A stretch of DNA of 64,000 bases from Bacillota bacterium (GCA_050259635.1 JBLNBA010000002.1:154906-218905); one strand, 5' to 3'. Positions 8,870 through 61,917 are shown, counted from the stretch's first letter. Numbers and translations are program-made. The notes: generated by a model from the letters alone, not told the origin.

Positions 8870-10204
8870 CTAGCGGAGTCCCGTGCTGCCGAAACCGCCG
8901 TCTAAGCGGCTGGTATCATTTTCCACCTTTCCTTCTTCTATCTTGGGAAATTCTACTTTCTGGATTAAGAGCTGAGCTATTTTCTGTCCCGCTTGGATAT
9001 TATATATATCTTCGCTCAGATTCTTGAAGACGACCATGATTTCTCCGCGGTAGCCGGAATCTATGACTCCGCCCATCGTCTTATATCCTTGGGCGGCTAA
9101 GCCGCTCTTATCCCAGATCAAACCGGCATACCCCTCCGGAATCATGAGCTTGACGCCGGTGCGGATGCGATCCGTGCCATAGGCGGGGACGGAGACGTTT
9201 TCGCAGGCATAAAGATCAAGGCCGGCATCAGTGGCATGTGCCCGCGTGGGCAGCTTGGCTTCTGCGTGAACTCTCTCGGCAAGGATTGCTGGTTTCTCAT
9301 TATCCGTGACAGAGGCAGGGAGGGCAGTGGCAGCGGTAACGGGGGTAAGATTCTCTCGCGTGTCTTCCGGGTGGGCGGGGACTCCTTTTTCTCCCCTGTC
9401 TGTTTGCCCGATCTCCGCTTTGGGGGTGTCGATGAACTGTGGCAGGTTACTGCCGATTTTTCCCTTGCCTACGAGGATATCCGCCACCGGTTGCATGCCG
9501 GCCGGCTTTTTCGTACCGCCGATGCTCAGGATGCGGTTGACATAGAGCCAGACAAGGTAGTTTATATCTTCTCGGCTCATAATCTCGCCGTTGCGGGTGC
9601 AGCGGATGAGACGGAAGTCCGGCATCGTCTGTGCTATTTCCAGATATACCTGTTCTGCTTTTTTGAGATGCTGCAGGTTTTCTTCGTGGATGTCTTTGGT
9701 TTTTCCTTTCCAATCCTCGCGTCCGCGGTCCTGAGCCATCTTTTGGGCTATTTCCGCCTCTACATGCAGGATGAGATAGAGATCGGGCTTGGGAATACGG
9801 AAGATCTTGTATTCGATCTCGCTTAACCAGTTGAAGAATAACTTCCTTTCCAAAGCGTTTTCTATTTTCCCCCCCTGGTGGGCGAAGCTGGCGGAAACAT
9901 AACGGTTACAGACCACGATCTTGCCCTGGGAAAGCCATTCGCGGATCTTGAAGCTGGCATCAAAACGATCGGTGGCGTATAAGATCGAGGCTGCATACGG
10001 ATTGACGTCATCTGCGCCTCCGTATTTTCCTGAGAGATATTCTTCCACCATGCCCGCGGATTTCTGATTATATTGCGGAAAGTCTGCCAACTCCACGTCG
10101 TATCCTTCGGCCGCGAGCTTGGATACCAAAAGTTGCAGCTGTGTAGTTTTGCCGCTGCCGTCGGTGCCGTCTATGACAATGAATTTTCCGGGATAGGATG
10201 ACAT
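8870..10204 (-). CDS. tmk-dut: fusion protein: thymidylate kinase (N-terminal) + dUTPase (C-terminal)
   Basis: Tmk P-loop IVIDGTDGSGKTTQ and DRFDAS motif; all five dUTPase motifs at the C-terminus (AGLDLY, KSG, GVIDSGYRGE, KIAQLL, RLDGGFGSTG); low-complexity linker about 100 aa. Confidence 0.8.
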   Translation of the reverse strand: MSSYPGKFIVIDGTDGSGKTTQLQLLVSKLAAEGYDVELADFPQYNQKSAGMVEEYLSGKYGGADDVNPYAASILYATDRFDASFKIREWLSQGKIVVCNRYVSASFAHQGGKIENALERKLFFNWLSEIEYKIFRIPKPDLYLILHVEAEIAQKMAQDRGREDWKGKTKDIHEENLQHLKKAEQVYLEIAQTMPDFRLIRCTRNGEIMSREDINYLVWLYVNRILSIGGTKKPAGMQPVADILVGKGKIGSNLPQFIDTPKAEIGQTDRGEKGVPAHPEDTRENLTPVTAATALPASVTDNEKPAILAERVHAEAKLPTRAHATDAGLDLYACENVSVPAYGTDRIRTGVKLMIPEGYAGLIWDKSGLAAQGYKTMGGVIDSGYRGEIMVVFKNLSEDIYNIQAGQKIAQLLIQKVEFPKIEEGKVENDTSRLDGGFGSTGLR

Positions 10205-10822: not shown

Positions 10823-12121
10823 TTAGCGTTGTTCCTTCAATACGATGTCATGGAGTCCGCGGCGCACATCCCAATCATCCAGGTCTAGATCGCAGTGGAG
10901 CGCCACTTCCGGCAGATTCTGGCGGAGGGCTTCATACATCTTGTGGGCCACTCGTCTGAGACTAGGGTGGACAGTCTTTCCCGAGCGTAGTTCGGTTACA
11001 TAGATGGCGGAAGTGAGAGGGTTGGTGATGTGGCAGAAGACATTGAAGCCCATGGCGATGTAGTATTGCTTGAGTTCGGGGCTTGCTTCGAGTGCATCCA
11101 CCTTGGTTTTCTGGGAAGCGATGAGGTTCTCCGCATCAAGGCGCATCTCTTCTGGCAGCTGTTCTAGGTACCAAGATTGGAAACCGAGTTGCGTGGTGAG
11201 CAGAGGAGTGCGGGCGATAGCACTGCGGTGGCGCTGAATATCCCGATATGAACCGTAATCGAGTAGGAACTCGAAGCGGCAATTTCCGAGGTCGGCCATG
11301 AAATAGGGAAGATTGGTTTTGATCGGGCGCTTATCCAATGCTTCCTGGAAATTCTTCAATTCATTACGGTCGATGTCGGTTGAGAATGAGAATTCCTTGG
11401 GGTCTTTCGGGGCGAAATATGAATATTTTGCCATCATCTCTTCACGGTAGGCTTCTTGTTCCGGATATTGCTGGTGGGAAAAGCTGTTTTCATAACGGGA
11501 GCGCAGTTCGGCAAGAATCTGTTCGGCTAATTCGCGCATCTCCTGGAGAGGATGATGCCTGAGAAGAGAGAGCTTATCCCAGGCTTGGCGCAGATTGGTG
11601 TGCCAGCTGAGCTGAGTGGTGATGCCGGCCGGCAAAAAGCCGCGCATGATGTCGAAGGAGCGGGCGCTGATTGCCTTGTCATACATTTTCTCGTCCTCTT
11701 CGTCTCGGCGGGGGTATTTTTCCTTGAGGAAGGGAGTGATCCTTTCACGCCCTTTGATATAAAAATCCATCCAGGCATCGATAATCGCTTTGGATTCGGC
11801 AGTCGCTAAAGGGTCTATTATCGCTTGGCTGGCCATGTCGATGTAGCGGGTGCTGGTCTCCTGTCCGCTATATAGTGGCCAGTCCTGCACCGCCTTATCG
11901 GCTAGGATGCTCAAGCCTTCGATGAAGATGGTAGTGCTGCCGCAATCCGCAATAGAAGCGTGCCCGTAACCGACGTAGAACGTGGACATGAATTTGCCGG
12001 AGCCGCTCTGCCTTACTTTTTCCACATGCTCTTCGACGCTTTTTGGGCTGCGGGAATATAGCGCCTGCATCATGGCGGTGTCCTCCGGGTTGAACTCATC
12101 GTAGACGAATACTTTTGCCAT
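10823..12121 (-). CDS. thyX: FAD-dependent thymidylate synthase ThyX-like, long form (432 aa)
   Basis: N-terminal GYGHASIADCGSTTIFIEGLS resembles the ThyX core, and ...STRY follows; an RHR motif is present only in the second half (QRHRSAIAR); context with dCMP deaminase, Tmk and Dut. Confidence 0.5.
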   Translation of the reverse strand: MAKVFVYDEFNPEDTAMMQALYSRSPKSVEEHVEKVRQSGSGKFMSTFYVGYGHASIADCGSTTIFIEGLSILADKAVQDWPLYSGQETSTRYIDMASQAIIDPLATAESKAIIDAWMDFYIKGRERITPFLKEKYPRRDEEDEKMYDKAISARSFDIMRGFLPAGITTQLSWHTNLRQAWDKLSLLRHHPLQEMRELAEQILAELRSRYENSFSHQQYPEQEAYREEMMAKYSYFAPKDPKEFSFSTDIDRNELKNFQEALDKRPIKTNLPYFMADLGNCRFEFLLDYGSYRDIQRHRSAIARTPLLTTQLGFQSWYLEQLPEEMRLDAENLIASQKTKVDALEASPELKQYYIAMGFNVFCHITNPLTSAIYVTELRSGKTVHPSLRRVAHKMYEALRQNLPEVALHCDLDLDDWDVRRGLHDIVLKEQR

Positions 12122-37058: not shown

Positions 37059-39713
37059 TTACTTCCTTGTTTTGCTTTCGATCGGGCTGACAGTGATAAG
37101 GTCTTTGCCGCTAATATCGATCTTGACCTGATCGCCCTCCTGGATCTGGTTCTCGATTATCCGCAAGGCGAGCTCGTCGAGGATCAGGTTTTGGATTATT
37201 CTCTTTAAGGGGCGGGCACCGTAGGTGCTGTCATATCCTTTTTCGGCTAATACCTTCTTGACTTTAGGGGCGATGCGCAGGGTGATATTCTTGGCATTGA
37301 GCCTTTTTTCCACCTTATCAAGTTCCAGGGCGACGATCTTTTCCAGGTCGGCGGCCTTGAGGCTCTTGAAGAGGACGATTTCATCGATGCGGTTAAGAAA
37401 CTCCAATTTGAAGTGTTCGCGGAGGATCTTATCCACTTTGTCTTTCATTTGCTTGGAGCGTTCCTCGTCTTTTTTCGGTTCCTCATTCTCTCCGCCGAAA
37501 CCGATGGAAAATTGCTTGATTACCTCGTTGCCCAGGTTGGAGGTCATGATGATCACCGTATTCTTGAAATTGACCGTGCGTCCTTTGGAATCAGTGAGAC
37601 GACCGTCATCGAGGATCTGCAAGAGCATATTGAACATATCCGGATGGGCCTTTTCGATTTCATCGAGCAGGATGACGCTATAGGGATGGCGCCGGACCCG
37701 TTCGGTGAGCTGTCCGCCTTCATCATAGCCGATATATCCGGGAGGGGAACCGATGAGCTTGGCGGCCGAATGCTTTTCCATGTATTCGCTCATGTCGAGG
37801 CGGATAAGAGCATTTTCGTCATCGAAAAGGAAGCGCGCTAAAGCCTTGCCGAGCTCCGTCTTGCCGACGCCGGTAGGACCGATGAAAAGGAATGATCCGA
37901 TCGGGCGCTTTTCTTCATTGATGCTGGCGCGTGAACGGCGGATGGCGCGGGCAACGGCGGCGATCGCTTCATCTTGGCCGATCACTTCGTTACCTAATTC
38001 CTGTTCGGCATTGGCTAATTTTTTCATGTCGTCAGCCAGCATCTTGTTAACCGGGATCCCGGTCCAGCGGGCTACCACTTTGGCGATATCTTCTTCGCCG
38101 ACTTCTTCCTTGAGGATACGTTGACCTTTCTTTTGGATCTTTATTAGGCTGTCTTGCAAGACCTTTATCTTATTTTCTAAATCAGGGATAAGTCCGTACT
38201 TGATTTTTGCCACCTCCGTAAGATCCGCTCCCTGGCGCTGGCTGATTTCGGCGCGCATCTTGAGCTCGTCGATTTCCCGCTTGTGGTCGCGGATGGCCGA
38301 GATGATGTTCTTTTCATTATTCCAATGTAATTCCAGCTGGTTGGCTTTCTCTTTGAGTTTGGCCAGCTCCTGGTTTATACCTCTTAGCTTGGGAGATTTT
38401 TTATCAGACGTAAGCAGGGCCGCCTTATTGATCTCTAATTGTTTGATCCGGCGCTTGAGCTGGTCTAATTCATCCGGCATCGAATCGATTTCCATGCGCA
38501 GGGAAGAAGTGGCCTCATCTATGAGGTCAACGGCTTTATCCGGCAAGAAGCGATCGCTGATATAGCGGTTGGATAATTTGGCGGCGGCGGTCAGGGCGTC
38601 GTCCGTAATGCGGACGCCATGGTGTACTTCGTATTTTTCCTTCAGGCCGCGGAGCATGTTGATAGTATCTTCGACGCTCGGCTCATTGACTATGATAGGT
38701 TGGAAACGGCGTTCTAAGGCAGCGTCTTTTTCGATATATTTCTGGTACTCTTTGGTCGTGGTGGCTCCGATCGTCCGGAGTTCACCTCTAGCCAAGGCAG
38801 GCTTGAGCATGTTGGAGGCATCCATCGATCCTTCCGAGGAGCCAGCTCCGATGAGGGTATGGAGTTCGTCAATAAAGATGATTATGCGTCCATTCTGGCT
38901 TTTAACTTCCTTAAGGACAGCTTTGAGGCGGTCTTCGAATTCTCCTCTAAACTTTGCGCCCGCCACGAGCATACCAAGATCCAGGGTGATGATCTCCTTA
39001 TTCTTTAAGTTCTCGGGAACATCGCCGGCAACAATACGTTGGGCTAATCCTTCGACGATCGCCGTCTTGCCGGTTCCGGCTTCCCCGATTAAAACCGGGT
39101 TGTTCTTAGTGCGGCGAAGCAGCACTTGCATTACGCGCCTCACTTCGGTATCGCGACCCACTACCGGATCAAGCTTCTCTTGCCGGGCAAGCTCCGTGAG
39201 ATTAGTGGTATATTTTTCCAGTACTTTGAATTTTCCTTCGGGAGTGGGATCGGTGATCCGCTCGGTGCCTCGGAGTTCTCCCAGAATAGCGCGTACTTTC
39301 TGGTGTTCAACGCCGAAATTTAAGAGGATGGCTTGGGCCGGCGAAGCGATGCCGATTAATGCTAGCAGGATGTGCTCAGTGGAGATAAATTCATCGCCCA
39401 TGCCGTCTGCTTCCTTTTTTGAGCGTTCCAATATGAGGGCAGTTTCATTCGTTCCTGACACTGCTTGTATCGGTCCGGATTGGATGTCGACTTTGGATTT
39501 TGGCAGTTTCTTGATTTCACCGACCGTGTAATTCTCAAGGATATCCGGGTCGATGGCGAGTTTTTCCAGGACGGGTTTTACCAAGCTTTCCGGCTGTTGG
39601 AGCAGGGCGAGCAGGATATGGACACCTTCGATGTTGGGTTGGCCGAAATTAGCCGCAATCGCTTGGGCGTTTATAATGGCTTCTTGGGATTTTTCCGTAA
39701 ATTTATTAAACAT
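37059..39713 (-). CDS. clpB: chaperone ClpB (two AAA+ domains, long M-domain coiled coil)
   Basis: Clp-N repeats, D1 GEAGTGKT, long coiled coil, D2 [15 protein letters not shown]; 884 aa. Confidence 0.85.
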
Positions 39714-40263: not shown

Positions 40264-42924
40264 ATGGAACAAAGGGAACTTCAATTCGAGACCGTTGGCG
40301 GACGTTTTGGCACTTGGCATCTGGGGCGCTTCCTCTATTGGGAGCAACCGCTAAGCCGCTCCAAAGTGACTTCCCGGCGCTTGCGCGAGAAAGCGGACCG
40401 CCTCGTGGATGGCGCCGCTTTTCTGGTATTGGCTGCCGGCTGGTTGTCCCTTATCGCTTGGGTTTATCTCAATTTTGGGTCTATCGCCTCGGATCCTTCT
40501 TCCTTGTTAACCTTCTTTGAAAATCGTCACCCGCTGCTTCTGACTTTCTTCTTTTCTCTCTGGTTCGATCTTTTCCTTTTCTATCGTAAAAGCGAAGCCT
40601 CCTTCCAAAGACAAAAGATTAATTACCGCATTCTCAAAGAGGAAAATAGCAAAGGCAAACAGGATCTCGAGGTTTCCGCTGCTTCCGGGGCGGCTTTGAG
40701 GCGGACGCTCGAAGATTCCTTTTTGATCGCCGCTAAGCTTAAGCAAACGGAAGTCTCGGTCATGCATTTTTTCCGGGCGCTGCTCCTTGATCCGAAAGTG
40801 CAGGAGATGTTCATCCGTTTAGGGATAGATGCCCGGGCTTTGGCTGGCAAAGTGGAGAAGCACATGAAAGGGAAGCAATCTTCCGACCGGCACCCGGCAA
40901 TATCTGCCGCTTTGCAGCAATGTCTCATCTCCGCCTATGCGGATGCCTTCTATCGCCGGCAGGCCTCGATCGAGCCGCTTAATGCCGTAATGTTCTGCTA
41001 TCATGCGGATAAGCTCCTGGCCGAAATTCTTTATGACCTCGAAGCCGATGCGGATAAAATCGCCAATGCTTGTGAATGGTTGCAGATCAATCGTGAATTG
41101 GCCGAGCGCTTACATTCTTTCAGCCGCTCCGCCGCCCTAAAGCCAAAGGGCAGCATGGATCGGGCATATACGGCGGTTGCTTCTCCGACCCTCGATCATT
41201 TTTCCCATGATCTGACCCTGGCTGCAAAATATGGAAGGCTTGAACTTTGCGTGGGGCGCCAGGTGGAGACGGATTCGATCTTTGAGATTATGGAGAGCGG
41301 CCAATGCGGCGTGCTCCTGGTGGGACATAGCGGCAGCGGTAAAACCTCAGTCATCAACGGCATTGCCCAGCTGATGGTTGAGGAGCGAGTCCCTAAATTC
41401 TTGCAGGATAAGCGTTTAGTCGAAATTGATGTTTCACGCTTAGTATCCGGCGCTACGGCTGCGGAGGCGGAATCTCGCCTTCTATCTAGCATCTCGGAAG
41501 CTTCCCGGGCCGGCAATATTGTTTTACATATCGCTAACGTCGAGAACTTGGTGGGAATAAGCGCCGGCAGCGAACAGAGCTTGGATTTATCCGAAGTCTT
41601 GGCTGAAGCTTTAACCCGCCGAGCCGTATATTGCTTGGCGACCATTTCTTCGGCGAATTATGCGGCGGTAATCGAGAAGAGCGCTTTGGGCGAAGCGATG
41701 ACCACCGTGGGAATAAAGGAACCGGCAGATAACCAAGCGATCCAAATGGTCGAGAGCAAAGTATCTTCCCTCGAGGGTGGCTACGGAGTCTTCATTACCT
41801 ATGGAGCTGTGGAGGCGAGTGTGAAATTATCCCAGCGTTTCATCCATGATAAGGCACTGCCTGAGAAAGCGGTCACACTATTGCGCGATGCTGTGATCCG
41901 GGTTGCCAAGCTGAGGAAACATGATCCTCGGCATTCCATCTGCCTGCGTGAACACGTCGCCGGCGCTTTGAGCGAAAAGACAGGAATTCCCCTGCAGAAG
42001 CTTACTGAAGATGAGGGCAAGAAACTTCTGTCTTTGGAAGAAAATATCCACCAGCGCATGGTGGGGCAGGAAGAAGCAGTGGCGGCGGTTTGCGCCAGCT
42101 TGCGCCGTGCCCGTGCGGAAATGAAAGATGCGAAACGGCCTATCGCCAGTTTCCTCTTCTTGGGACCGACTGGCGTGGGCAAGACGGAACTGGCAAAGAC
42201 GGTATCGGAAGTATATTTCGGTCGGGAGGATTATATGATCCGCTTGGACATGAGCGAATACCAAGACGCTGGAAGCACCAGGAAGATGATCGGCGATGTC
42301 GACGGAACGTTAGGTTTTTTGACTGAAGCGGTTAGAAAGAAGCCTTTCTCTCTCATCCTTCTGGATGAAATCGAAAAGGCCCATCCGGATATCTTGAATC
42401 TCTTCTTGCAAATGCTGGATGACGGGCGCCTTACGGACGGCCAAGGAAGGACGATCAGTTTTACGGAATCTATCATTATTGCCACCTCTAACATTGGCGC
42501 CTTGTATATCCAGGAGCAGATCAAAACCGGTACCGATATCAAGCAGATCCGGCAAGAGCTTATCGATAACCAGCTGAACAAGCACATGCGTCCGGAACTC
42601 ATCAACCGCTTTGACGGAATTATTGTTTTCAAGCCTCTTACGGAAGAAAATCTTTACCAGATTGCAACTTTGATGCTAAAAGGCATAAAGAAGCGCTTGG
42701 CCGAAAAAGGCGTTGGCCTCCAAGCGGATAGGATGGGCGCGCAGAAATTGGCTAAGGCAGGATATGATCCGAAGTTCGGCGCTCGCCCCTTGCGTCGTTT
42801 GCTGCAGGAAAAAGTTGAAGACAAGATCGCTAATAAGATCTTAGCCGGTGAACTGAAGCGACGCGATACGGTGGTTATCGACGCGCAAGCGGAGATTGCC
42901 GTAGTAAAAGGGAAGGAGTTGTAG
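40264..42924 (+). CDS. membrane-anchored ClpA/B/C-family AAA+ ATPase paralog (N-terminal TM segments, Clp-N repeats, two AAA modules, D1 Walker B degenerate)
   Basis: 2 N-terminal TM; D1 GHSGSGKT but HIANVEN instead of hhhhDE; D2 canonical ([26 protein letters not shown]). Confidence 0.6.
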   Translation: MEQRELQFETVGGRFGTWHLGRFLYWEQPLSRSKVTSRRLREKADRLVDGAAFLVLAAGWLSLIAWVYLNFGSIASDPSSLLTFFENRHPLLLTFFFSLWFDLFLFYRKSEASFQRQKINYRILKEENSKGKQDLEVSAASGAALRRTLEDSFLIAAKLKQTEVSVMHFFRALLLDPKVQEMFIRLGIDARALAGKVEKHMKGKQSSDRHPAISAALQQCLISAYADAFYRRQASIEPLNAVMFCYHADKLLAEILYDLEADADKIANACEWLQINRELAERLHSFSRSAALKPKGSMDRAYTAVASPTLDHFSHDLTLAAKYGRLELCVGRQVETDSIFEIMESGQCGVLLVGHSGSGKTSVINGIAQLMVEERVPKFLQDKRLVEIDVSRLVSGATAAEAESRLLSSISEASRAGNIVLHIANVENLVGISAGSEQSLDLSEVLAEALTRRAVYCLATISSANYAAVIEKSALGEAMTTVGIKEPADNQAIQMVESKVSSLEGGYGVFITYGAVEASVKLSQRFIHDKALPEKAVTLLRDAVIRVAKLRKHDPRHSICLREHVAGALSEKTGIPLQKLTEDEGKKLLSLEENIHQRMVGQEEAVAAVCASLRRARAEMKDAKRPIASFLFLGPTGVGKTELAKTVSEVYFGREDYMIRLDMSEYQDAGSTRKMIGDVDGTLGFLTEAVRKKPFSLILLDEIEKAHPDILNLFLQMLDDGRLTDGQGRTISFTESIIIATSNIGALYIQEQIKTGTDIKQIRQELIDNQLNKHMRPELINRFDGIIVFKPLTEENLYQIATLMLKGIKKRLAEKGVGLQADRMGAQKLAKAGYDPKFGARPLRRLLQEKVEDKIANKILAGELKRRDTVVIDAQAEIAVVKGKEL

Positions 42925-43316: not shown

Positions 43317-44888
43317 TTGTCAATTACGTCTATGTTACCTTATATTACTACCTTCATTGCCATTTCTATAATTTCCTTCCTTGTTGGCAGGGGTGTGATT
43401 AGCGTAGCTGAGCGTTTTCATATTGTAGATAGTCCGGATGGAGTTAGAAAGCTGCAATCCAAACCGATTCCTCTTCTCGGAGGGACGGCGATCTTTATTT
43501 CCTTCTTCACCGGCCTGGCAGTTTTCTTGCCGACACTCCTTTCTGGGGACCTGGACATATCTCATTGGATCGGTTTCTTCGCGGGGGCATCCGTCCTGAT
43601 GCTCGGCGGGTTCTTAGATGACAAATATGATCTCAACCCACGCATCCAGATTATTTTTCCCATCATAGCTTCCATTGCTCCCATTATCGGCGGGGTTGGT
43701 ATTGAGCGCTTATCCAATCCTTTCGGCGGTATTTTTGCCGTTCCGGCCTTACTAAGCGCGGCGCTAATCATGGTCTGGCTCTTGGGGATGATGTACACGA
43801 CAAAATTATTGGACGGCGTGGACGGGTTGGTGAGCGGCCTGGGGGTGATCGGTGCTTTGGTTATATTTTTATTCACCTCCACTACCAGATATTTCCAGCC
43901 GGACATTGCCCTAGCAGCATGGATTTTCTCTGCCGCTTGCCTGGGCTTTTTGGTTCTGAATTTTAATCCCGCCAAGATCTATTTAGGGGAAGGGGGCTCG
44001 CTTTTGATCGGTTATGTGCTCGGAGTCTTGGCGATTATTTCCGGCGGGAAGATCGCTATCGCCTTGCTCGTGATGGGCCTGCCTGTCCTTGATGTCGCCT
44101 GGACGATCGTCCGTCGCCTTTTGCGGGGTAGAAATCCCTTCCGCTTCGCCGATCGCTCTCACTTGCATCATCGATTGCTGGATTTAGGGTTATCACCGCG
44201 GCAGACAGTAGTCATATTTTATGCCTTTGCGGCCGCCTTCGGAGCTAGCGGCCTTTTCCTGCAGAGTCGGGGCAAGCTGGTGGCTCTTTCTTTGCTGCTT
44301 GCCATCATGCTCGCCTTGGTGATTTTCTTTTCCCAATATGAGAGGCGCAAGCGCCCCCGCCTCCTTTTCCATGTCTGTTGCGCCCCATGCGCTTCTTATT
44401 CCACCCTTAAGAAGCTTTTACCCCGCTATCGCGTGACTTGGTATTTTCTTAATTCCAACCTGTCTTCTTTCTTGGAATACGAAGCGAGACTGAAAACGGC
44501 AGAGAAGGCCGCGAGGCTTTTGGGGGTCGAACTGATAGCGGTTCCATACGATCATGAAGCGTGGAGCGAAATAGTGAAAGGGCACGAAGATGACCCGGAA
44601 AGAGGTGACCGCTGTCGTATCTGTTATCGCGACCGCCTATCTAATGCTTATAAGTTTGCACAGGACGGCGGCTATGAATTCTTTTCCACGAGCTTGCTGG
44701 TGAGCCCATATAAGGATGACAAGGCTATCCGGGAAATCTGCCGTTCACTGGAGAAAGAAGGGGGGCCGAAATTCCATGACGAGGATTTCCAAGCCGATGA
44801 CGGCTTCCACCGTTCGATCGCTTGGGCGAAAGAAAAGGGGCTGTATTTGCAGAAGTATTGCGGCTGTGAATTTAGTCTAAGAAAATAA
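43317..44888 (+). CDS. fusion: WecA/MraY-family polyprenyl-phosphate N-acetylhexosamine-1-phosphate transferase (N-terminal) + QueH(DUF208)-like Cys-rich domain (C-terminal)
   Basis: GT4 motifs DDKYD, KLLDGVDGLVSG, ADRSHLHHRL; C-terminal LLFHVCCAPCASY ... CRICY ... YCGCEFS resembles epoxyqueuosine reductase QueH; start may be at 43332. Confidence 0.55.
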   Translation: MSITSMLPYITTFIAISIISFLVGRGVISVAERFHIVDSPDGVRKLQSKPIPLLGGTAIFISFFTGLAVFLPTLLSGDLDISHWIGFFAGASVLMLGGFLDDKYDLNPRIQIIFPIIASIAPIIGGVGIERLSNPFGGIFAVPALLSAALIMVWLLGMMYTTKLLDGVDGLVSGLGVIGALVIFLFTSTTRYFQPDIALAAWIFSAACLGFLVLNFNPAKIYLGEGGSLLIGYVLGVLAIISGGKIAIALLVMGLPVLDVAWTIVRRLLRGRNPFRFADRSHLHHRLLDLGLSPRQTVVIFYAFAAAFGASGLFLQSRGKLVALSLLLAIMLALVIFFSQYERRKRPRLLFHVCCAPCASYSTLKKLLPRYRVTWYFLNSNLSSFLEYEARLKTAEKAARLLGVELIAVPYDHEAWSEIVKGHEDDPERGDRCRICYRDRLSNAYKFAQDGGYEFFSTSLLVSPYKDDKAIREICRSLEKEGGPKFHDEDFQADDGFHRSIAWAKEKGLYLQKYCGCEFSLRK

Positions 44889-48668: not shown

Positions 48669-49787
48669 ATGAAAAACAAATTATTACCCGTCATTCTCAC
48701 CGCGACCGCCTTCGGTTTGCTGGCCGGCGCCGTTGGTGCTTTGATAGCCGGCGTATATGGCTCGAGCAGCCTGAGCGTGGGATCTTTCAATCGGGAGCTT
48801 GATTTAAGCAGCTTGGGTTATCTCTCTCCAAATCTGGTTATCCGCGACGCCAAGAAAGTAGTAGTGAACCAGGATGTAAAGGCGGATGAGACCATCCGCG
48901 ATCTTCGCCAGAGCCTGCTCGGGGTGTTCGTGAAGAAAGAAGGCGAAGCAATATATGAATTACATGCCCCTTTTGCCCAGGCACTGGCCGCCACTAGCGA
49001 TGGCTGGGTAATGGCGGCTTGGCCTAAAGTGCCAAGCAAGGCGGAGATCGAGACTATTAAAGACACTTATGTCGTAGTTGATGATTCTCGTAAGGTATAT
49101 GCAGTTGATCAGGTGCTTTCTTCAGAAGGAGCCGGCGCTTTCATTTTTCTCCATCTCGCGTCTTCCAGCGGTTTGAATGTCCGCCGCCTGTCTCCGGATT
49201 CCGATATCAAGGCGGGCCAGTCCCTGATCATCTCTTCCGCCCTAGATTCATTTCTCCTCGATAGCCTCCAGTCTAAGAGCATGGCTTCTTCTTTGCTTTC
49301 TAGCGATAGCTATCCCCTCACTTTGCGCTTTGCGGCGGGATCGGCGCTTAAGCCTGCATACGCTTTTAACCTCAATGGTGATCTTGTGGCAGCGGTAGAT
49401 GCGCAGGGCAGACAGCTGGCTGGTCCGGTGTTAGACGCTTATTGGCGGTCTCTTTTACGCAAACAGGATTTGTCTTTACCCTCTCTTGGCGTAAACTACC
49501 TGGATTTATCCGCGGTAGCTATCGGCGGGTCGAGATCGTATCCGGAAAAGGGAGCTCTACTGAAAGTTCGTGGTGAATTGCCGGCGGTGATAAAAGGCGG
49601 CCCGGCAGATAAAGCCGGCCTTATCGCCGGTGATATCATCGTGCGCCTTGATGGTATTGAAATTAACGCCGATAATAACCTCTCGGTCTTGTTGGCTACA
49701 TATGAGGCGGGTGATCGTGTCACCGTCAGTTATTTACGGAAGAATTTGCCAGCCCAAGTGGAAGTGACCTTGGGAGAGGCGAAGTGA
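48669..49787 (+). CDS. membrane-anchored PDZ-domain protein, HtrA-like with apparently degenerate protease domain
   Basis: N-terminal TM; C-terminal PDZ (GGPADKAGLIAGDIIVRLDG); no GNSGG serine motif. Confidence 0.45.
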   Translation: MKNKLLPVILTATAFGLLAGAVGALIAGVYGSSSLSVGSFNRELDLSSLGYLSPNLVIRDAKKVVVNQDVKADETIRDLRQSLLGVFVKKEGEAIYELHAPFAQALAATSDGWVMAAWPKVPSKAEIETIKDTYVVVDDSRKVYAVDQVLSSEGAGAFIFLHLASSSGLNVRRLSPDSDIKAGQSLIISSALDSFLLDSLQSKSMASSLLSSDSYPLTLRFAAGSALKPAYAFNLNGDLVAAVDAQGRQLAGPVLDAYWRSLLRKQDLSLPSLGVNYLDLSAVAIGGSRSYPEKGALLKVRGELPAVIKGGPADKAGLIAGDIIVRLDGIEINADNNLSVLLATYEAGDRVTVSYLRKNLPAQVEVTLGEAK

Positions 49788-49791
49788 ATCT

Positions 49792-50967
49792 ATGGCTAAG
49801 GTAAAAAGCATTAGACTGAAACGACAATGGAAGGGCGTAAGGGTGCTGTTGCGGGTCGATTTTAATGTTCCCAAGGACGGGAAGAATATCGCTGAGGATT
49901 TTCGGATTACCGCTGCGCTTCCCACGCTTCGTTTCCTGATCAGCAAAGGTGCCCGGGTGATAATTTTAAGCCACTGGGGAGATCCCAAGGGTTGGGATAA
50001 ATCCCTTTCCACCAAGCCGCTAGCCGCTCGCTTAAGCAGGCTTTCCAAACTAAAGATCAAGCACGTGGCGGATATTGCCGGAAAGAAAGCTTTGGCCGCG
50101 ATTGCAAAATTAGAAGACGGCGAGGTTCTCATGTTGGAGAATGTCCGTTTTGAAGCAGGGGAAAAAGATAATAGCCGGGAATTCGCCAAGCAGCTTGCTT
50201 CTTTGGCGGAGGTGTATGTCAATGACGCTTTTTCCGTTTGCCACCGAGATCAAGCATCGGTGAGCCTGGTTTCTGGTCTCCTTCCTTCGTACGCCGGCCT
50301 CCAGGTGGGGGAGGAAATTCGTAATCTGGATCGCGTCCTTGAGCCGCAGAAGCCACTCATAGTCATCATGGGCGGGTCGAAGATCGCCACGAAGGCGCCG
50401 CTTATCCGCAAGCTCTATCCTAAAGCGGAAAAGATCCTCCTGGGCGGCGGTTTAGCTAATACTTTTTTGAAATGGCAGGGTAAGGAAATTGGAAAATCAC
50501 TAGCCGATGATGACGCCAAGGAATATATAGAGCCCTTCTTCGTTAAGGGAAAACTCAAAGCCAAGATAATACTTCCTGTGGATGCAGTAGTGGAATCTTC
50601 TTCCGGAAGAAATTATTGCAAAATTGTGGAAGGGATTAATAAAGGCGATCGCATCTTTGATATCGGTCCGGAGACGGTGGCGCTGTTTAGCTCCTTGATC
50701 AAGAAGGGTAAGACGATTGTCTGGAACGGGCCTTTAGGAAAGTTCGAGGATGCTCCTTTCCGCCATGGGACTCAGGCGGTGGCGGAGGTCATCGCGGCCA
50801 GGTCTACTGGGAAAGCTTTCGGTTTAGTCGGGGGCGGTGAAACAGTGGATGCCTTGAAACGCACCAAGATGGAGTCATATGTCGACTGGGTTTCTACGGC
50901 CGGCGGTGCCATGCTTTCTTATCTAGGGGGCGAAAAGCTCCCTGGGTTGAAAAATATTCTCAAATAA
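49792..50967 (+). CDS. pgk: phosphoglycerate kinase
   Basis: N-terminus RVDFNVP...; 391 aa. Confidence 0.85.
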   Translation: MAKVKSIRLKRQWKGVRVLLRVDFNVPKDGKNIAEDFRITAALPTLRFLISKGARVIILSHWGDPKGWDKSLSTKPLAARLSRLSKLKIKHVADIAGKKALAAIAKLEDGEVLMLENVRFEAGEKDNSREFAKQLASLAEVYVNDAFSVCHRDQASVSLVSGLLPSYAGLQVGEEIRNLDRVLEPQKPLIVIMGGSKIATKAPLIRKLYPKAEKILLGGGLANTFLKWQGKEIGKSLADDDAKEYIEPFFVKGKLKAKIILPVDAVVESSSGRNYCKIVEGINKGDRIFDIGPETVALFSSLIKKGKTIVWNGPLGKFEDAPFRHGTQAVAEVIAARSTGKAFGLVGGGETVDALKRTKMESYVDWVSTAGGAMLSYLGGEKLPGLKNILK

Positions 50968-50971
50968 AATT

Positions 50972-52273
50972 ATGCCAAAGAAGATTGCGGACAAGATCGC
51001 TTCGGTCAAAGCGAGGGAAATCCTTGATTCTCGGGGTTATCCAACAATTGAGGCTTGTGTCAGACTGGAATCGGGCGTGAAGGCTAAAGCGAGCGCTCCT
51101 GCCGGTATCGAGCCGGACAAGGGAAGCCTGAAAGATCTTCGCGACGGGGATAAGAAGCGGTTCTCAGGGAAGGGGGTGCTTCTGGCCGCCAATCATATTA
51201 ACGAGATAATTTCTTCTCGTCTGCAAGGCCTGGAAATCGGCAACCAGCAGGAGATAGATCGTCTGTTGATAGAGTTAGATGGCAGTTTGGACCGGCGGCA
51301 GCTGGGTGCAAACGCGATCTTTGCGGTATCGGTGGCAGTCGCCCGGGCGGCAGCCATTTCCCAAGGATTAGAGCTTTATGAATATATCTGCCAGGCATTT
51401 GCTCTGGCTAAGCCGGCGAATCTGCCGGTGCCCATGTTTAACATGTTTAACGGCGGCAGGCACGCCGATACCAATTTGGATTTTCAAGAATTTCTGCTCA
51501 TACCTCAGAAAGGAGCGGCCGCCTTTGCCAGTAGCGCCCGCGAAGGAGAAATGGCTAAAATGATTCGCGCCGGGGCCGAAACATATCATTGGCTAGGACA
51601 GGTTTTAAGGGAATCCGGTTTTGATACTGATACCGGCTTGGAGGGCGGCTATGCTCCCGATATGGATTCCAGCCTTAAGGCTTTGGAGATGATCATGGCG
51701 GCAGTTATCCGTGCCGGCTATAAGCCGGGAGTAGATTTTAAGCTTGGTATCGATATCGGTTCGGCCGGTCTTTATGACCAAGCTGCCGGGCGGTATATTT
51801 TCCCCTTGGATGAAGCCAGCCTTACCCCGCAAACATTATCTTCTTTATATAGTGATTGGCTTGAGCGCTATCCTTTGGCCTACCTTGAAGATGGAGTAGG
51901 CGACGAGGATTGGCCGGCCTGGCGGGAGGCGACCGCCGTTTTGGGGGATAAGCTGATCCTTGCCGGCGATGACCTTTTTGCCGGTAGCATTGAACGTCTA
52001 CGGCGGGGAATTGCCGAAAGAGCGGCTAATGCCATAGTGCTTAAGCCGAATCAGATTGGTACGTTGACAGAAGTGGTGGAATGTGCGAAACTTGCGCAAC
52101 GGCAGAATTACCGTCTAATCGTCTCCCATCGGGGGGCGGAAACTAATGACGACTTCATTTCTGACCTGGCAGCCGCCCTGGGTGCTCAATATCTCAAAGC
52201 CGGCTCGCTTTCCCGTGGAGAACGCGTGAGCAAATATAACCGCTTGGCGGAAATAGCGCTCATGCCTGCTTGA
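50972..52273 (+). CDS. eno: enolase
   Basis: segments IKAREILDSRGYPTIE and DLRDGDKKRFSGKGV; 433 aa. Confidence 0.8.
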   Translation: MPKKIADKIASVKAREILDSRGYPTIEACVRLESGVKAKASAPAGIEPDKGSLKDLRDGDKKRFSGKGVLLAANHINEIISSRLQGLEIGNQQEIDRLLIELDGSLDRRQLGANAIFAVSVAVARAAAISQGLELYEYICQAFALAKPANLPVPMFNMFNGGRHADTNLDFQEFLLIPQKGAAAFASSAREGEMAKMIRAGAETYHWLGQVLRESGFDTDTGLEGGYAPDMDSSLKALEMIMAAVIRAGYKPGVDFKLGIDIGSAGLYDQAAGRYIFPLDEASLTPQTLSSLYSDWLERYPLAYLEDGVGDEDWPAWREATAVLGDKLILAGDDLFAGSIERLRRGIAERAANAIVLKPNQIGTLTEVVECAKLAQRQNYRLIVSHRGAETNDDFISDLAAALGAQYLKAGSLSRGERVSKYNRLAEIALMPA

Positions 52274-52279
52274 TATTTT

Positions 52280-53164
52280 ATGTCACAAACCGAAACCGAT
52301 AATGACGGAAGTATGGAGGACGCCGATAAGCCGGCGTTCTTGCTTTGCCTTTTGTTAGACGGTCTTGGGATTTCCCAGGCAACCGAAGCCAACGCGGTGG
52401 CGATAGCAAAGATGCCGAATTTTTCCCGTTTCGTTAAACAATACCCGGTAACCTTGTTATCCGGAGGAGATGCTGATCCTCGCCGCCGATATTATTCCCT
52501 TGGTTGCGGCAGTTTAGAGATCATAGACGGACCATCTCCGCTAGGTGAGGCTTTATCTAATGAAGGCCGCCGTGTCCTTAAGATATGCGGAAGCGAGCAA
52601 TTGACGTCTCTAAACTATCACTTTAACGGCCAAAAAGAATTACCATATCCCGGTGAAGATCGCCTGGCTGTTACCACTCCTTCCCGAGGAAGCAGTCTCA
52701 AGGAATTTGCCAAAGAACTAAGCGGGTTGATTGCTGCCTCATTAAAAAGAAGGAAGCATGATGTGATCATTGCCAGCTTGCCCTTTGCCCAGGAGGCGTC
52801 TGCTAACGGTGATTTCAAAGATACTGTCCGGAGCCTGCAGCAGATAGATAGGCTGATTGGCAAGATAGCCGATATCGTCCTTAATACCTCGGGAATCCTT
52901 ATCATCACCGCTCCTTACGGAAACGCGGAAAAGACCAAGGATCTGGCGGCTGACTGGGAAGACCGGGAACCGACTGAAAATCCTGTTCCATTTCTAGTAA
53001 TTGGCAAGGAATATGAAGGGAAGACGATTGGTCTAGCCGATCCTTTGGAAGGAGATCTGAGCGTTTTGGCTCCGGCCGGGACTCTTGCTGACTTCTCACC
53101 CACTGTCTTGTCCCTGCTAGGTATTGCCAAGCCGGAGGGAATGCTTGGCAAGAGCTTGATTTGA
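52280..53164 (+). CDS. short (294 aa) iPGM/metalloenzyme-superfamily homolog lacking the transferase domain; metal-ligand motifs apparently substituted
   Basis: N-terminal FLLCLLLDGLG...ANAVAIAKMPNF and C-terminal IITAPYGNAE...NPVPFLV...LLGIAKPEGMLGKSLI resemble the iPGM termini; PYGN where DHGN is expected. Confidence 0.45.
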   Translation: MSQTETDNDGSMEDADKPAFLLCLLLDGLGISQATEANAVAIAKMPNFSRFVKQYPVTLLSGGDADPRRRYYSLGCGSLEIIDGPSPLGEALSNEGRRVLKICGSEQLTSLNYHFNGQKELPYPGEDRLAVTTPSRGSSLKEFAKELSGLIAASLKRRKHDVIIASLPFAQEASANGDFKDTVRSLQQIDRLIGKIADIVLNTSGILIITAPYGNAEKTKDLAADWEDREPTENPVPFLVIGKEYEGKTIGLADPLEGDLSVLAPAGTLADFSPTVLSLLGIAKPEGMLGKSLI

Positions 53165-53223
53165 AACATTATATTGATATAATTTAGATAATCGTACAAA
53201 AACAACAAATAGAAGGAGGAAAA

Positions 53224-53466
53224 ATGCAAAATGATGCAAGACTTGCAGTAAATGAGGAGGAAGCCGTCAATAAGATGGCCGAACTCCTTGAGATGTCTCC
53301 TTTCGATAAGAAGGAAGTCATAAGGAAAGCGCTTCAGAGACAATCTTTGAATCCAAAGTTTATGCATGACTTAGGATATACAAGGTTAATGTTTGCCCGG
53401 ATGCTTTCGAAACTCGAAAGCGGACTACGTTCTTATACCTGCCGGCAGTACCTCTTGATCGAGTAA
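53224..53466 (+). CDS. hypothetical 80-aa protein
   Basis: consensus Shine-Dalgarno AAGGAGGAAAAATG and own terminator. Confidence 0.4.
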   Translation: MQNDARLAVNEEEAVNKMAELLEMSPFDKKEVIRKALQRQSLNPKFMHDLGYTRLMFARMLSKLESGLRSYTCRQYLLIE

Positions 53467-53487
53467 TCTCGATTAGGTCAGAAAATA

Positions 53488-53519
53488 AAAAGACCGTTTT
53501 TAAAGCGGTCTTCTTTTTT
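53488..53519. terminator. bidirectional terminator (AAGACCG-loop-CGGTCTT)
   Basis: 7-bp stem with flanking A-run and T-run. Confidence 0.65.
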
Positions 53520-53533
53520 ATCCAAATATTCTC

Positions 53534-53968
53534 TTAAAATCCCAGCATGTATCCTGCCAGACTGACACTCATGCCGATTAAGGCCCCGATTATCACTTGC
53601 AAAGGCGTGTGGCCGATGTGCTCCAGCTGTTTGGGGTATAGATTGTCCAGATAATCGTCTTCTTTGAGATCCTTCACGAGGATGTTCAGGGTTTTGCCAT
53701 GCTGCCCGAGATAGTTCCTTAGTCCGATAGCGTCTGTGATGACGATGGTCATCAAGACAAAAGCAATCGCAAAACTGTTAGACCAGAGTCCGTCACGCAG
53801 GCCGACAACCATGGTCAGCGAAGTAACGGTGGCAGTGTGGCCGCTCGGCATGTCCGAATAGGCGAAGATGTCGCGCCAACGAAAACGCCGGTTCCTGCTC
53901 TTGAGCAGGACTTTCATGCCTTGGGCAAGAGCGAAGGCGATGACTGGATAGATTAAGTATGGAGGCAT
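53534..53968 (-). CDS. DUF212 / divergent PAP2-like membrane protein
   Basis: motif PSGHTATV; 144 aa, multi-TM. Confidence 0.55.
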   Translation of the reverse strand: MPPYLIYPVIAFALAQGMKVLLKSRNRRFRWRDIFAYSDMPSGHTATVTSLTMVVGLRDGLWSNSFAIAFVLMTIVITDAIGLRNYLGQHGKTLNILVKDLKEDDYLDNLYPKQLEHIGHTPLQVIIGALIGMSVSLAGYMLGF

Positions 53969-56424: not shown

Positions 56425-57381
56425 ATGGCCAAGATATTAGTGACCGGCGGCGCCGGTTTTATCGGTTCAAATCTAGCTGACCGTCTCCTTTCTGAGGGGA
56501 ATGAAGTTTTTATTATCGATAACCTTTCATCGGGGCGTCGTGATTATGTTCCGGATGGCGCTGTTTTCTGGGAGATGGATATCTGCGATCCTCAGATGAT
56601 TGAGCGCTGTGCTAGCGAAGGCTTTAAGGTTATATATCATTTGGCTGCGCAGATAGATGTGAGGAAGTCCGTGGCGGATCCGGCTGGGGATACCAAGGTG
56701 AATATTCTTGGTGGCATCAATGTCTTGGAAGCGGCTAAGCGCGCCGGGGCTAAAGTCGTCATGGCTTCTACTGGCGGAGCGATTTATGGGGAGACGGAAG
56801 AAATCCCAACGACGGAGAATACTCCGACCTATCCGCTTTCTCCTTATGGAATAAATAAGCTGGCCCTGGAAAAGTATCTGAACTACTATTACTTTGCCTA
56901 TGGGCTGAACTATACCATCCTCCGTTTCGCCAATGTCTATGGCCCGCGGCAATATAAGGGCGGAGAAGCGGGCGTTATTGCCATCTTTACCGAAGCGATG
57001 GCTACCGGGAAGCCATGCACGCTTTATGGGGATGGGAAACAAACACGTGATTTCGTCTATGTGGACGATGTGGTGTCCGCTTTAGTGAAGGCCGGAAAGA
57101 TAGATTGCCGGGGTGAGATCAATATCGGCACCGGGAAAGAGATCGACATGTGGCAGATGGTTTCCGCGATTGAGGCAGCTGCCGGTGGCAAGCTTGCTCT
57201 TGAGCTGGCTCCGGGGAGAATCGGCGAACAGCGCCGCAGCGTCCTGTCTAACCGGCGGGCTCTAGAGACTTTGGATTGGCAGCCGGAAGTGGGCTTTGAA
57301 GAAGGAGTAAAACGCACCTATGATTGGGTAAGATCCCTTTTGGTCGAAGATATTGCAAATAAATCATTTGTTGAAATATGA
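56425..57381 (+). CDS. NAD-dependent epimerase/dehydratase, UDP-glucose 4-epimerase-like
   Basis: motifs GGAGFIGSNL and YGINK. Confidence 0.65.
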   Translation: MAKILVTGGAGFIGSNLADRLLSEGNEVFIIDNLSSGRRDYVPDGAVFWEMDICDPQMIERCASEGFKVIYHLAAQIDVRKSVADPAGDTKVNILGGINVLEAAKRAGAKVVMASTGGAIYGETEEIPTTENTPTYPLSPYGINKLALEKYLNYYYFAYGLNYTILRFANVYGPRQYKGGEAGVIAIFTEAMATGKPCTLYGDGKQTRDFVYVDDVVSALVKAGKIDCRGEINIGTGKEIDMWQMVSAIEAAAGGKLALELAPGRIGEQRRSVLSNRRALETLDWQPEVGFEEGVKRTYDWVRSLLVEDIANKSFVEI

Positions 57382-58106
57382 AAATATTTATCGCTAACTG
57401 GAAGATGCAGGTACCTTTCGCTGAAGCAGAAATCTTGGCGAAATCCTTTGCCCGTGCTTTCAAGGAATATAAAGGCAAGGCAGTAATCTGCCCGGACTTC
57501 TTAGCTTTACCATTGGTGGGGAAGACGCTTATTCCTTCGGCCCTTAAGCTTGGCGTCCAAGACCTAGCTCCGTATTCGCGAGGTGCTTATACCGGGGAAG
57601 TATCTCCGGTGGATATGGCTGTTCTCGGAGCGGAGTTTGCGCTTATCGGCCACAGTGAACGCCGCTCAATCTTCCATGAAGACGATAAGCTTATCGCCGA
57701 GAAGATCCGGTCCGCCGTAGAACAGGGAATGACTCCGGTACTCTGCGTCGGCGAAAACGCGGCTGAGCGGAAACTGGGCAGGGCGGCGTCGGTCGTACGG
57801 AACCAGTTAAAAGGAGCTTTTAAAGGCATGAAAGCCAAGGAGCTAAAATCCTTGGTCATCGCCTATGAGCCGGTTTGGGCGATTGGCACGGGTTCTGTCT
57901 GCGACCCGGCGACGGCTTTTCGTATGAAGGCGACGATTAGTGATTTTTGCCTGCGATCCGGGCTGAAGAAGACGCCCGTGCTATATGGAGGCAGCGTTAA
58001 GCCGGATAATGCCGCTTCCTTTCTGGCTAAGGGCGGCTTCGACGGATTATTAGTAGGAGGAGCCAGTCTGGAAGTAGAAAGCTTCCTTAAAATCTGTAAA
58101 CAATAA
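57378..58106 (+). CDS. tpiA: triosephosphate isomerase
   Basis: motifs IANWKMQ and AYEPVWAIGTG. Confidence 0.8.
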   Translation: MKIFIANWKMQVPFAEAEILAKSFARAFKEYKGKAVICPDFLALPLVGKTLIPSALKLGVQDLAPYSRGAYTGEVSPVDMAVLGAEFALIGHSERRSIFHEDDKLIAEKIRSAVEQGMTPVLCVGENAAERKLGRAASVVRNQLKGAFKGMKAKELKSLVIAYEPVWAIGTGSVCDPATAFRMKATISDFCLRSGLKKTPVLYGGSVKPDNAASFLAKGGFDGLLVGGASLEVESFLKICKQ

Positions 58107-61518: not shown

Positions 61519-61917
61519 ATGAGGATTTTTATTTATACACTCTGTTTAATAAGTTCGCTGTTTATTTCTTTTCCTGTACTTGCCCAAGGCAGTGGTGCTC
61601 AGACTGACAATGGGATTGGCAGCGGGGCGCAAACGATTCCGCCAACGGCAGCGACGGATGAATTGACTAATCCTCTCAAGGGAGTGGATACTCCTCAGGA
61701 ACTTATAGGGTCCGTTATTGAAAAGCTTTTCGGGATTATCGGGTCCCTCGCTCTGGTAATGTTTATCTATGGCGGTCTGATTTGGATGACTTCCTCCGGC
61801 AGCTCTACCCAAGTCAAGAAGGGAAGGGATATAATTGTCTGGGCGATTGTCGGCATGGTGGTTATCTTTTCTGCCTATGCCCTAGTCCGGTTCGTTATAC
61901 AGGGGATTGGAGCTTAA
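61519..61917 (+). CDS. TrbC/VirB2-like pilin-type small membrane protein (signal peptide plus two C-terminal TM helices)
   Basis: architecture only. Confidence 0.3.
   Translation: MRIFIYTLCLISSLFISFPVLAQGSGAQTDNGIGSGAQTIPPTAATDELTNPLKGVDTPQELIGSVIEKLFGIIGSLALVMFIYGGLIWMTSSGSSTQVKKGRDIIVWAIVGMVVIFSAYALVRFVIQGIGA

Follow-up and report, generated by a model that had tools for sequence, protein, structure and literature searches.

The DNA analysed is a 64-kb stretch (64,000 nucleotides; GCA_050259635.1 JBLNBA010000002.1:154906-218905, labelled Bacillota bacterium), below called the window. The gene considered here, denoted X (52280..53164, plus strand, ATG start, stop codon included), encodes a protein of 294 amino acids (aa) derived from cofactor-independent phosphoglycerate mutase (iPGM, the gpmI product). 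It lies in a conserved block that is opened by the gene of a PDZ-domain protein (48669..49787, plus) and continues with pgk (49792..50967, plus; PF00162, 411 bits) and eno (50972..52273, plus), the latter encoding a full-length enolase of 433 aa strongly similar to solved enolases. The gaps are 4 nt between pgk and eno and 6 nt between eno and X; at locus L003 eno and X overlap. Downstream, between two convergent units, a hairpin followed by a T-run (53490..53512, plus) is the likely terminator of the pgk-eno-X transcription unit. The convergent DUF212 (divergent PAP2) gene (53534..53968, minus) is a conserved neighbour at all related loci, and tpiA (57378..58106, plus) is near X. The order PDZ-pgk-eno-X-DUF212(-)-gyrB(-)...tpiA is observed at every locus with sufficient contig. 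The neighbours named in the initial annotation, pgk, eno and the nearby tpiA, were confirmed by their coordinates in the window. The identical protein in the database, P0001, begins at an alternative start, M12 (nt 52313).

A strong sigma-70-like promoter match (TTGATT-16-TATAAT with TG) overlaps the stop codon of X, in the region 53156-53512. Downstream of this match there is a poorly conserved open reading frame (ORF) of 80 aa (53224-53466). It was rejected as a conserved partner of X, as only L012 has a match to it (36%).

The Pfam scan of X produced a single match, to PF01676 (Metalloenzyme; E=2e-23, residues 23-283), and no match to PF06415 (iPGM_N), the transferase domain. The PF01676 score of 83.6 bits against a gathering threshold of 24.3, together with the core fold, places X in this superfamily, although the metal-binding residues that gave the family its name are not present. 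The scores with iPGM models are well below their cut-offs: 103.8 bits against the curated 330.65 for TIGR01307 and 99.6 bits against 862 for NF003897. When compared with PDB by phmmer, X matches the B. stearothermophilus iPGM (1EJJ) in two blocks (E=2.6e-29), X 19-62 corresponding to 1EJJ 6-47 and X 86-294 to 1EJJ 315-509, so that about 265 iPGM residues (48-314) are replaced by about 23. This bears out the initial description of a 294-aa protein with iPGM-like termini and no central domain.

The first block is the N-terminal strand-helix segment of the AlkP-like core (52334..52465; this and the following segments are on the plus strand) and holds D27, the counterpart of Asp12. It is followed by the remnant of the nucleophile loop, DADPRRRYYSLGCGS (52469..52513, aa 64-78), with P67 in place of Ser62 and Y71 in place of His66. 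A short linker of low model confidence (52511..52540, aa 78-87, pLDDT below 50 at 79-83) stands where iPGM has the phosphotransferase domain of about 230 residues (PF06415). The remainder (52535..53161, aa 86-294) is the C-terminal part of the phosphatase domain. Within it there is a clade-specific insertion, GKTIGLADPLEGDLSVLAPAG (53018..53080, aa 247-267), where the family is most strongly conserved.

Among 5.8 billion proteins searched there were 54 short homologues (281-303 aa, 34-100% identity) and one ordinary iPGM. All sources of the homologues are Patescibacteria or unclassified metagenome-assembled genomes (MAGs). All short homologues lack the transferase domain and the ligands, and none of the 54 reaches the TIGR01307 cut-off. 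The consensus of the insertion is GKTIGLADPLxGDLSxLAPAG; the C-terminal helix follows. An AlphaFold model of X built from the 54-sequence alignment has an AlkP-like core (pLDDT 81.9, pTM 0.84) and an acidic, disordered N-terminus; no signal peptide was observed in X. Its best Foldseek match is the iPGM phosphatase domain 1O98 (E=1.4e-17, TMq 0.74), with ApgM, phosphopentomutase, sulfatases, NPP and the PbgA/YejM domain scoring far lower. The suggested alternative of a sulfatase or phosphopentomutase was thus checked, and iPGM phosphatase domains remain the best structural matches.

The alignment with B. stearothermophilus iPGM demonstrates that neither the catalytic serine nor the metal ligands are conserved, with the exception of D27, the only one of six ligands retained. 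The nucleophile S62 corresponds to P67, and the phosphate-binding K336 to Q107. The ligand substitutions are D403 to Q171, H407 to A175, D444-H445 to P212-Y213 (within APYGNAE) and H462 to P231, while H66 corresponds to Y71. The initial annotation had read two substituted metal-binding motifs in X. For PYGN this is correct, as it occupies the position of DHGN. However, SLGCGS (73-78) aligns with NIGAGR, downstream of the nucleophile motif; it is DPRRRYY (66-72) that corresponds to GNSEVGH.

The same pattern is observed in the entire family. Five of the six Mn ligands and Lys336 are lost in 54 of 54 members, the K336 position being Q in 41 of them. The nucleophile position is variable (proline in 14 members, glutamate in 11, leucine in 10, alanine in 9 and serine in three; also Y, W, V, I or K), and the former metal site is occupied by Tyr, Phe, Pro, Ala or Leu. 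On the other hand, Y71 is invariant in all 54 sequences, and the invariant residues also include D27, R70, E106, N116, D190, N215 and E217.

With each GTDB species represented by one genome, 27 genomes, L012-L038, were found to encode the family. The carriers include several genomes titled Candidatus Falkowbacteria or Parcubacteria and one closed chromosome of 896 kb. Such recurrence, in 54 clusters at 34-62% identity and in 27 reference genomes, is far beyond chance, and thus X is real. Several members are annotated as iPGM by JGI, whereas the NCBI label is 'hypothetical protein'.

One could regard X as a non-functional relic or pseudogene, or else as an artefact of assembly or annotation of a truncated gpmI. 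Indeed, a gene in decay would look like this, with a domain and nearly all catalytic residues lost, and the NCBI label would fit. However, in 14 genome pairs the dN/dS ratio of X is 0.035-0.17 (NG86), in the same range as that of eno (0.008-0.16), pgk (0.03-0.10) and tpiA (0.04-0.14). The frame is intact in all clusters and species-level genomes, down to 34% identity, with a consistent length across independent assemblies. The alignment has 26 invariant columns, the insertion of 20 residues is nearly invariant, and the structure model is confident. Thus X is a functional gene under purifying selection, not a broken one. The idea of a relic, hardly credible, is already refuted by the data on selection and conservation, and the word 'degenerate' of the initial annotation is wrong if it means that the gene is decaying.

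When 1.84 billion cluster representatives were searched with a profile, 4592 matched. The best 150 of these divide about equally into short forms and full-length proteins of about 520 aa. Tabulation of nine catalytic columns yields a graded series from canonical to fully degenerate proteins. It starts with canonical full-length iPGMs (DSHKDHDHH), continues with full-length and short proteins that have Cys for Ser62 and all ligands intact, and ends with partly and then fully degenerate forms; in the latter the replacement of H66 by Y is near-universal. The GDLS insertion is observed throughout the series, including the full-length P0118 and P0119 with the complete catalytic set. Its pattern, G..(8-12)..DLS..P.G before the C-terminal G.L.D.APT helix, is common to X proteins of the window, L059, L056, L007 and L008. 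We use the name 'type B', coined in this analysis, for the Patescibacteria clade of iPGM and X proteins with this insertion of about 16-20 residues.

The proteins with Cys for Ser62 (GNCEAGH, ligands intact) deserve a separate mention. They are P0091 (L007 10001-10912), P0111, P0115, P0089 and P0133. Both short and full-length forms occur, and some are encoded in a non-glycolytic context, for example between efp and tsaE in L010. They may be enzymes that are active but differ in chemistry or substrate.

Several sister lineages have X and an intact gpmI side by side. The gene order is PDZ-pgk-eno-gpmI(578 aa)-X(267 aa)-DUF212(-)-gyrB(-) in L059, a 'Ca. Falkowbacteria' MAG, and pgk-eno-gpmI(532 aa)-X(294 aa, degenerate)-...-DUF212(-)-gyrB(-) in L056 and L057. 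In L007 it is eno-(123 aa)-gpmI(529 aa)-X(303 aa), the latter with Cys62 and intact ligands. L008 has eno-X(523 aa)-DUF212(-)-gyrB(-), with X full-length but degenerate, so the degenerate form also exists at full length. Finally, in L060 eno is followed by P0118, which is full-length, intact and has the insertion, and then by a PAP2 gene. The three tandem gpmI genes encode all catalytic motifs and, like ordinary iPGMs from outside the Candidate Phyla Radiation (CPR), have no insertion; they form a clade with 100% support, here called type A. The X copies, including the group of the window, are separated from type A in 100% of 300 bootstraps (neighbour-joining tree, insertion columns excluded).

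Since the sister lineages have the order pgk-eno-gpmI(intact)-X, X is an old neighbour and paralogue of gpmI. It is a descendant of an insertion-bearing type-B iPGM that stood beside gpmI, rather than a housekeeping gpmI that has shrunk. Truncation in situ of the housekeeping gene was considered and rejected, as L056, L057, L059 and L007 demonstrate a neighbouring paralogue and gpmI deletion. A split enzyme with a separately encoded transferase domain was rejected as well, because the metal site and the nucleophile are also gone.

In the clade of the window the type-A gpmI was cleanly deleted, leaving pgk-eno-X; the gap of 6 nt leaves no room for a gpmI remnant between eno and X. The identity of GyrB to that of the window is 80-88% in the gpmI-less clade and 74-76% in the gpmI-retaining relatives, which is consistent with the loss of gpmI at the base of the window's clade. 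The gpmI gene was scored as present in 9 of 10 MAGs of the related genus Patescibacterium (PMC11809585), and thus an intact gpmI is the norm nearby. The comparison across related genomes, proposed at the outset, therefore qualifies the initial claim that X sits exactly where a phosphoglycerate mutase (PGM) belongs. In relatives an intact gpmI stands between eno and X, and X is the gene next to the former gpmI site. The supposed relevance to the completeness of lower glycolysis stands.

No other PGM was found in the window. Pfam scans of about 50 ORFs of the window revealed no His_Phos_1, iPGM_N or ApgM-type proteins. In a tblastn search of the window with a canonical CPR iPGM and E. coli GpmA (an approximate sequence) X was the sole match, and no RHG motif was found in the six frames of the window. 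Among the best 120 of about 8000 homologues of the L056 type-A gpmI (at least 59% identity) none is located on carrier contigs of 593, 434, 236, 135 and 119 kb, not all carrier contigs being in the database. Similarly, none of the best 120 homologues of a His-phosphatase-like protein of the carrier L044 comes from the large carrier contigs.

The latter protein (L044 9396-9935; P0325-P0444) represents a PF00300 family of about 179 aa whose members are 62-92% identical across many candidate phyla of Patescibacteria. It has an invariant motif YFVHGTTxDN, with Val for Arg of RHG, and retains H10, R59 and H140. Some pipelines name it 'probable phosphoglycerate mutase'. We consider a role as cofactor-dependent PGM unlikely, since the motif is VHG instead of RHG.

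The state of the neighbouring glycolytic enzymes was then compared in L001-L038 and L055. Enolase was scored at twelve residues (yeast numbering): S39, H159, E168, E211, D246, E295, D320, K345, H373, R374, S375 and K396, which we take from the enolase literature to be catalytic residues or ligands. One scored column turned out to be D321, which is not the Mg ligand D320; D320 itself, the first Asp of GDDL, is kept in nearly all carriers. Enolases encoded beside an intact gpmI have 12 of 12 residues, whereas those of gpmI-less carriers have from 7 to 12, and the losses differ between sublineages. E211 is replaced by L in L003 and L028-L033; H159 by N, Y or Q in L003, L005, L014, L020, L028, L029 and L035; H373 by Q in L005, L030, L031, L037 and L055; R374 by E or S in L005 and L035; and D246 by N in L035 and L055. 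Substitutions of S375 by G or A also occur in gpmI-less genomes. Loop 1 (SGASTG) is scrambled throughout the subclade of the window. The window enolase itself lacks this loop with Ser39, a ligand of Mg-II, and Ser375, and keeps the acid/base and Mg-I residues.

The catalytic residues K12, H95 and E165 of triosephosphate isomerase (TIM) are invariant in all carriers. The phosphoglycerate kinase (PGK) motifs are conserved in carriers except for a lineage-wide replacement of R65 by D or E, which is also present in the gpmI-retaining L056. In the window and at all related loci PGK reads SHWGDP or SHLGEP against the signature SHLGRP, where Arg65 is a ligand of the 3-phosphoglycerate (3PG) phosphate.

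Scattered, independent losses of otherwise universal residues in an enolase under strong purifying selection are the pattern expected if catalysis were no longer selected while the protein was still needed. Read from the residues, this argues that catalysis from 3PG to phosphoenolpyruvate (PEP) is no longer selected in most of the clade, and in turn that 2-phosphoglycerate (2-PG) is supplied neither by X nor by another source in most of it.

How, then, does X function? Its catalytic residues are lost, purifying selection persists and the gene has been retained for a long time. By these operational criteria X is best read as a conserved pseudoenzyme. We consider it fairly probable that it is not a PGM and has a non-catalytic, binding role. 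The ancestor had the order PDZ-pgk-eno-gpmI-X-DUF212-gyrB, with X directly downstream of a full-length gpmI. X shed the transferase domain, the serine nucleophile and the Mn ligands while remaining under purifying selection; in a later step the true gpmI was deleted in the window's clade, leaving pgk-eno-X. The present protein would be metal-free and inert in the interconversion of 3PG and 2-PG, and would act as a scaffold, a partner or a ligand-binding protein. The conserved insertion and the C-terminal helix are its probable functional surface. Enolase is the most obvious candidate partner, since eno and X are tightly coupled and retained together; sensing of phosphoglycerate or another scaffold role would be equally plausible. 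The fold, the lost domain and catalytic residues, conservation across the family, purifying selection, the operon coupling, the ancestral order, the gpmI deletion and the erosion of enolase are shown by the data; absence of catalysis in vivo, action by binding and the identity of the partner are what we infer.

Several observations weigh against this. Three deep carriers, L034, L036 and L038, have a canonical enolase without gpmI in the operon, which would be less puzzling if X or a gene elsewhere still provided some PGM activity. The insertion in itself is not a mark of a non-catalytic role, as it is also present in the full-length P0118 (L060), apparently active by its residues. The neighbour-joining grouping of the fast-evolving X copies could be inflated by long branches. 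Finally, the covariation of rates is not specific for enolase: in a mirror-tree analysis the partial correlation of X is 0.51 with enolase, 0.68 with TIM and 0.64 with PGK. At the same time, the canonical enolases of the three deep carriers indicate that erosion of enolase came after the loss of gpmI.

Some of these points would be natural if X were still a PGM or another phosphotransferase or phosphatase, with a new metal-independent site built from the family-invariant residues. Lower glycolysis would then be complete. X would be an enzyme of the pgk-eno-X operon, as constrained as pgk and tpiA and covarying in rate with TIM and PGK; it would provide the 2-PG that the three canonical enolases need, and no other PGM was seen in the window. 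However, the entire substrate-binding transferase domain is absent, and so are the nucleophile, whose position is free to vary, the metal site and, in most members by replacement with Q, the phosphate-binding lysine; thus X probably does not replace PGM. Moreover, in L056 and L059 an intact gpmI accompanies the degenerate X, whose selected function there must be something other than PGM, and the erosion of enolase in most carriers is not expected if 2-PG is supplied. We know of no precedent for phosphotransfer by an AlkP fold without metals and without a nucleophile, which also weighs against an enzyme. We therefore consider a catalytic X very improbable. Between the two options left by the initial annotation, a minimal enzyme and a pseudoenzyme, the variable nucleophile, the loss of ligands in all members and the erosion of enolase favour the latter.

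A more specific form of the binding role is that X serves enolase as an obligate subunit with no catalysis of its own; enolase itself would be turning into a pseudoenzyme, and the pair would moonlight outside glycolysis, for example in RNA turnover or as a structural component. Enolase is a well-known moonlighting protein, acting as a degradosome component and a surface adhesin. The genes eno and X are adjacent in every one of at least 27 genomes, 6 nt apart or overlapping, both are under purifying selection while losing catalytic residues, and X has outlasted gpmI and hence is independent of it. On the other hand, the rate covariation has no enolase-specific component, X follows directly after gpmI rather than eno in the gpmI-retaining genomes, and in L009 and L010 the genes of short X-like proteins with intact ligands do not stand near eno. 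A surface role for X is not indicated, given the acidic disordered N-terminus and the lack of a signal peptide. We regard this form as possible but doubtful. Slightly less likely still is the broader proposal that the Falkowbacteria-like clade has abandoned the segment from 3PG to PEP and keeps enolase and X, under strong purifying selection, as a cooperating non-glycolytic pair of pseudoenzymes. If this is true, two enzymes that act in succession in glycolysis have given rise to a conserved module of two pseudoenzymes.

The binding role of X can also be considered against known relatives. The iPGMs (GpmI; 1EJJ, 1O98; TIGR01307; EC 5.4.2.12) share with X the AlkP-like phosphatase domain, homologous at both termini, the structural motifs LDG, GN.E, T.NPVP and G.L.D.APT.L, and the glycolytic operon. 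X differs in lacking PF06415, Ser62 and Lys336, in having one of six Mn ligands and 294 residues instead of about 510, and in the additional GDLS insertion of 16-20 residues; judged by sequence, it does not pass any of the tests applied here for the catalytic residues and the architecture that define the iPGM family. The full-length type-B iPGMs, P0118 and P0119, have the insertion and the best scores among full-length proteins with the family profile, and P0118 occupies the relative position of X, with eno immediately before it and a PAP2-family gene after it. However, they have two domains and the complete DSHKDHDHH set, and are presumably active. ApgM and phosphopentomutase share the PF01676 superfamily and the core fold (matches to 2ZKT and 3M8W), but in these enzymes the nucleophile and the metal ligands are retained, and each has a cap domain of its own. 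NF003104 gives X 18.2 bits against a cut-off of 489, and TIGR00306 and phosphopentomutase models have weak matches in 9 and 8 of the 54 members, respectively. The periplasmic domain of PbgA/YejM (6V8Q, 6VC7), one of the catalytically inactive domains of the alkaline-phosphatase superfamily, uses the AlkP fold to bind or regulate and not to catalyse, and in its proposed function X resembles such domains. The similarity of the PbgA/YejM domain to X (Foldseek E~6e-8, TMq 0.57-0.60) is at the level of the fold only, with 15-16% identity; PbgA/YejM is a membrane-anchored protein of the proteobacterial envelope, and its origin, context and presumably partner are unrelated.

Some other genes of the window were noted in passing. 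A small T4SS-pilin/TrbC-like protein (61519-61917, plus) is encoded beside a Band_7/SPFH protein a few kb past tpiA and is kept at the equivalent position in L001, L003 and L005. Upstream there are two divergent ClpB-like AAA+ genes (37059-39713, minus; 40264-42924, plus). The second has no Clp_N match and a weak, atypical first AAA module, and its counterpart precedes the conserved block in L001, L003 and L005. The gene at 43317-44888 (plus) encodes a fusion, inferred from synteny with L001 and L005, of Glycos_transf_4 (MraY/WecA-like) with QueH (epoxyqueuosine reductase), which are separate genes in L003. A single ORF of 443 aa (8870-10204, minus) combines an N-terminal thymidylate kinase with a C-terminal dUTPase and adjoins a dCMP deaminase gene and a ThyX of 431 aa (10823-12121), whose Thy1 domain spans only the first 207 residues or so. 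Finally, an ORF of 342 aa (176-1204, plus) has sigma-70 region 4 and a segment similar to the C-terminal domain of the RNA polymerase alpha subunit.

We found no paper on the X family, nor any that describes an iPGM of CPR as truncated or degenerate or a CPR enolase as a pseudoenzyme. The nearest published remark, in the CPR survey of Jaffe et al. (PMC7304191), is about suspected 'too divergent' PGMs in shallow Parcubacteria clades. The relaxed TIGR01307 threshold of that survey is 92.9 bits (Table S2), and thus X of the window, with 103.8 bits, would be counted as a PGM. Carrier genomes can therefore be scored as complete for lower glycolysis though the real gpmI is gone, and the 'complete glycolysis' of this gpmI-less clade of Patescibacteria is probably an annotation illusion. 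As read here, X is a pseudoenzyme derived from a known enzyme fold, and its family provides a well-resolved natural series from an enzyme to a pseudoenzyme: intact two-domain iPGM, Cys62 variants, short proteins with intact ligands, and short proteins without ligands. The parallel erosion of enolase is unexpected, and its lineage-specific character, under strong purifying selection, suggests that another enzyme of glycolysis is also acquiring a new use. If the activities of PGM and enolase are truly absent, ATP would be gained only at the PGK step, and 3-phosphoglycerate would have to be disposed of or exchanged, which constrains models of host dependence.

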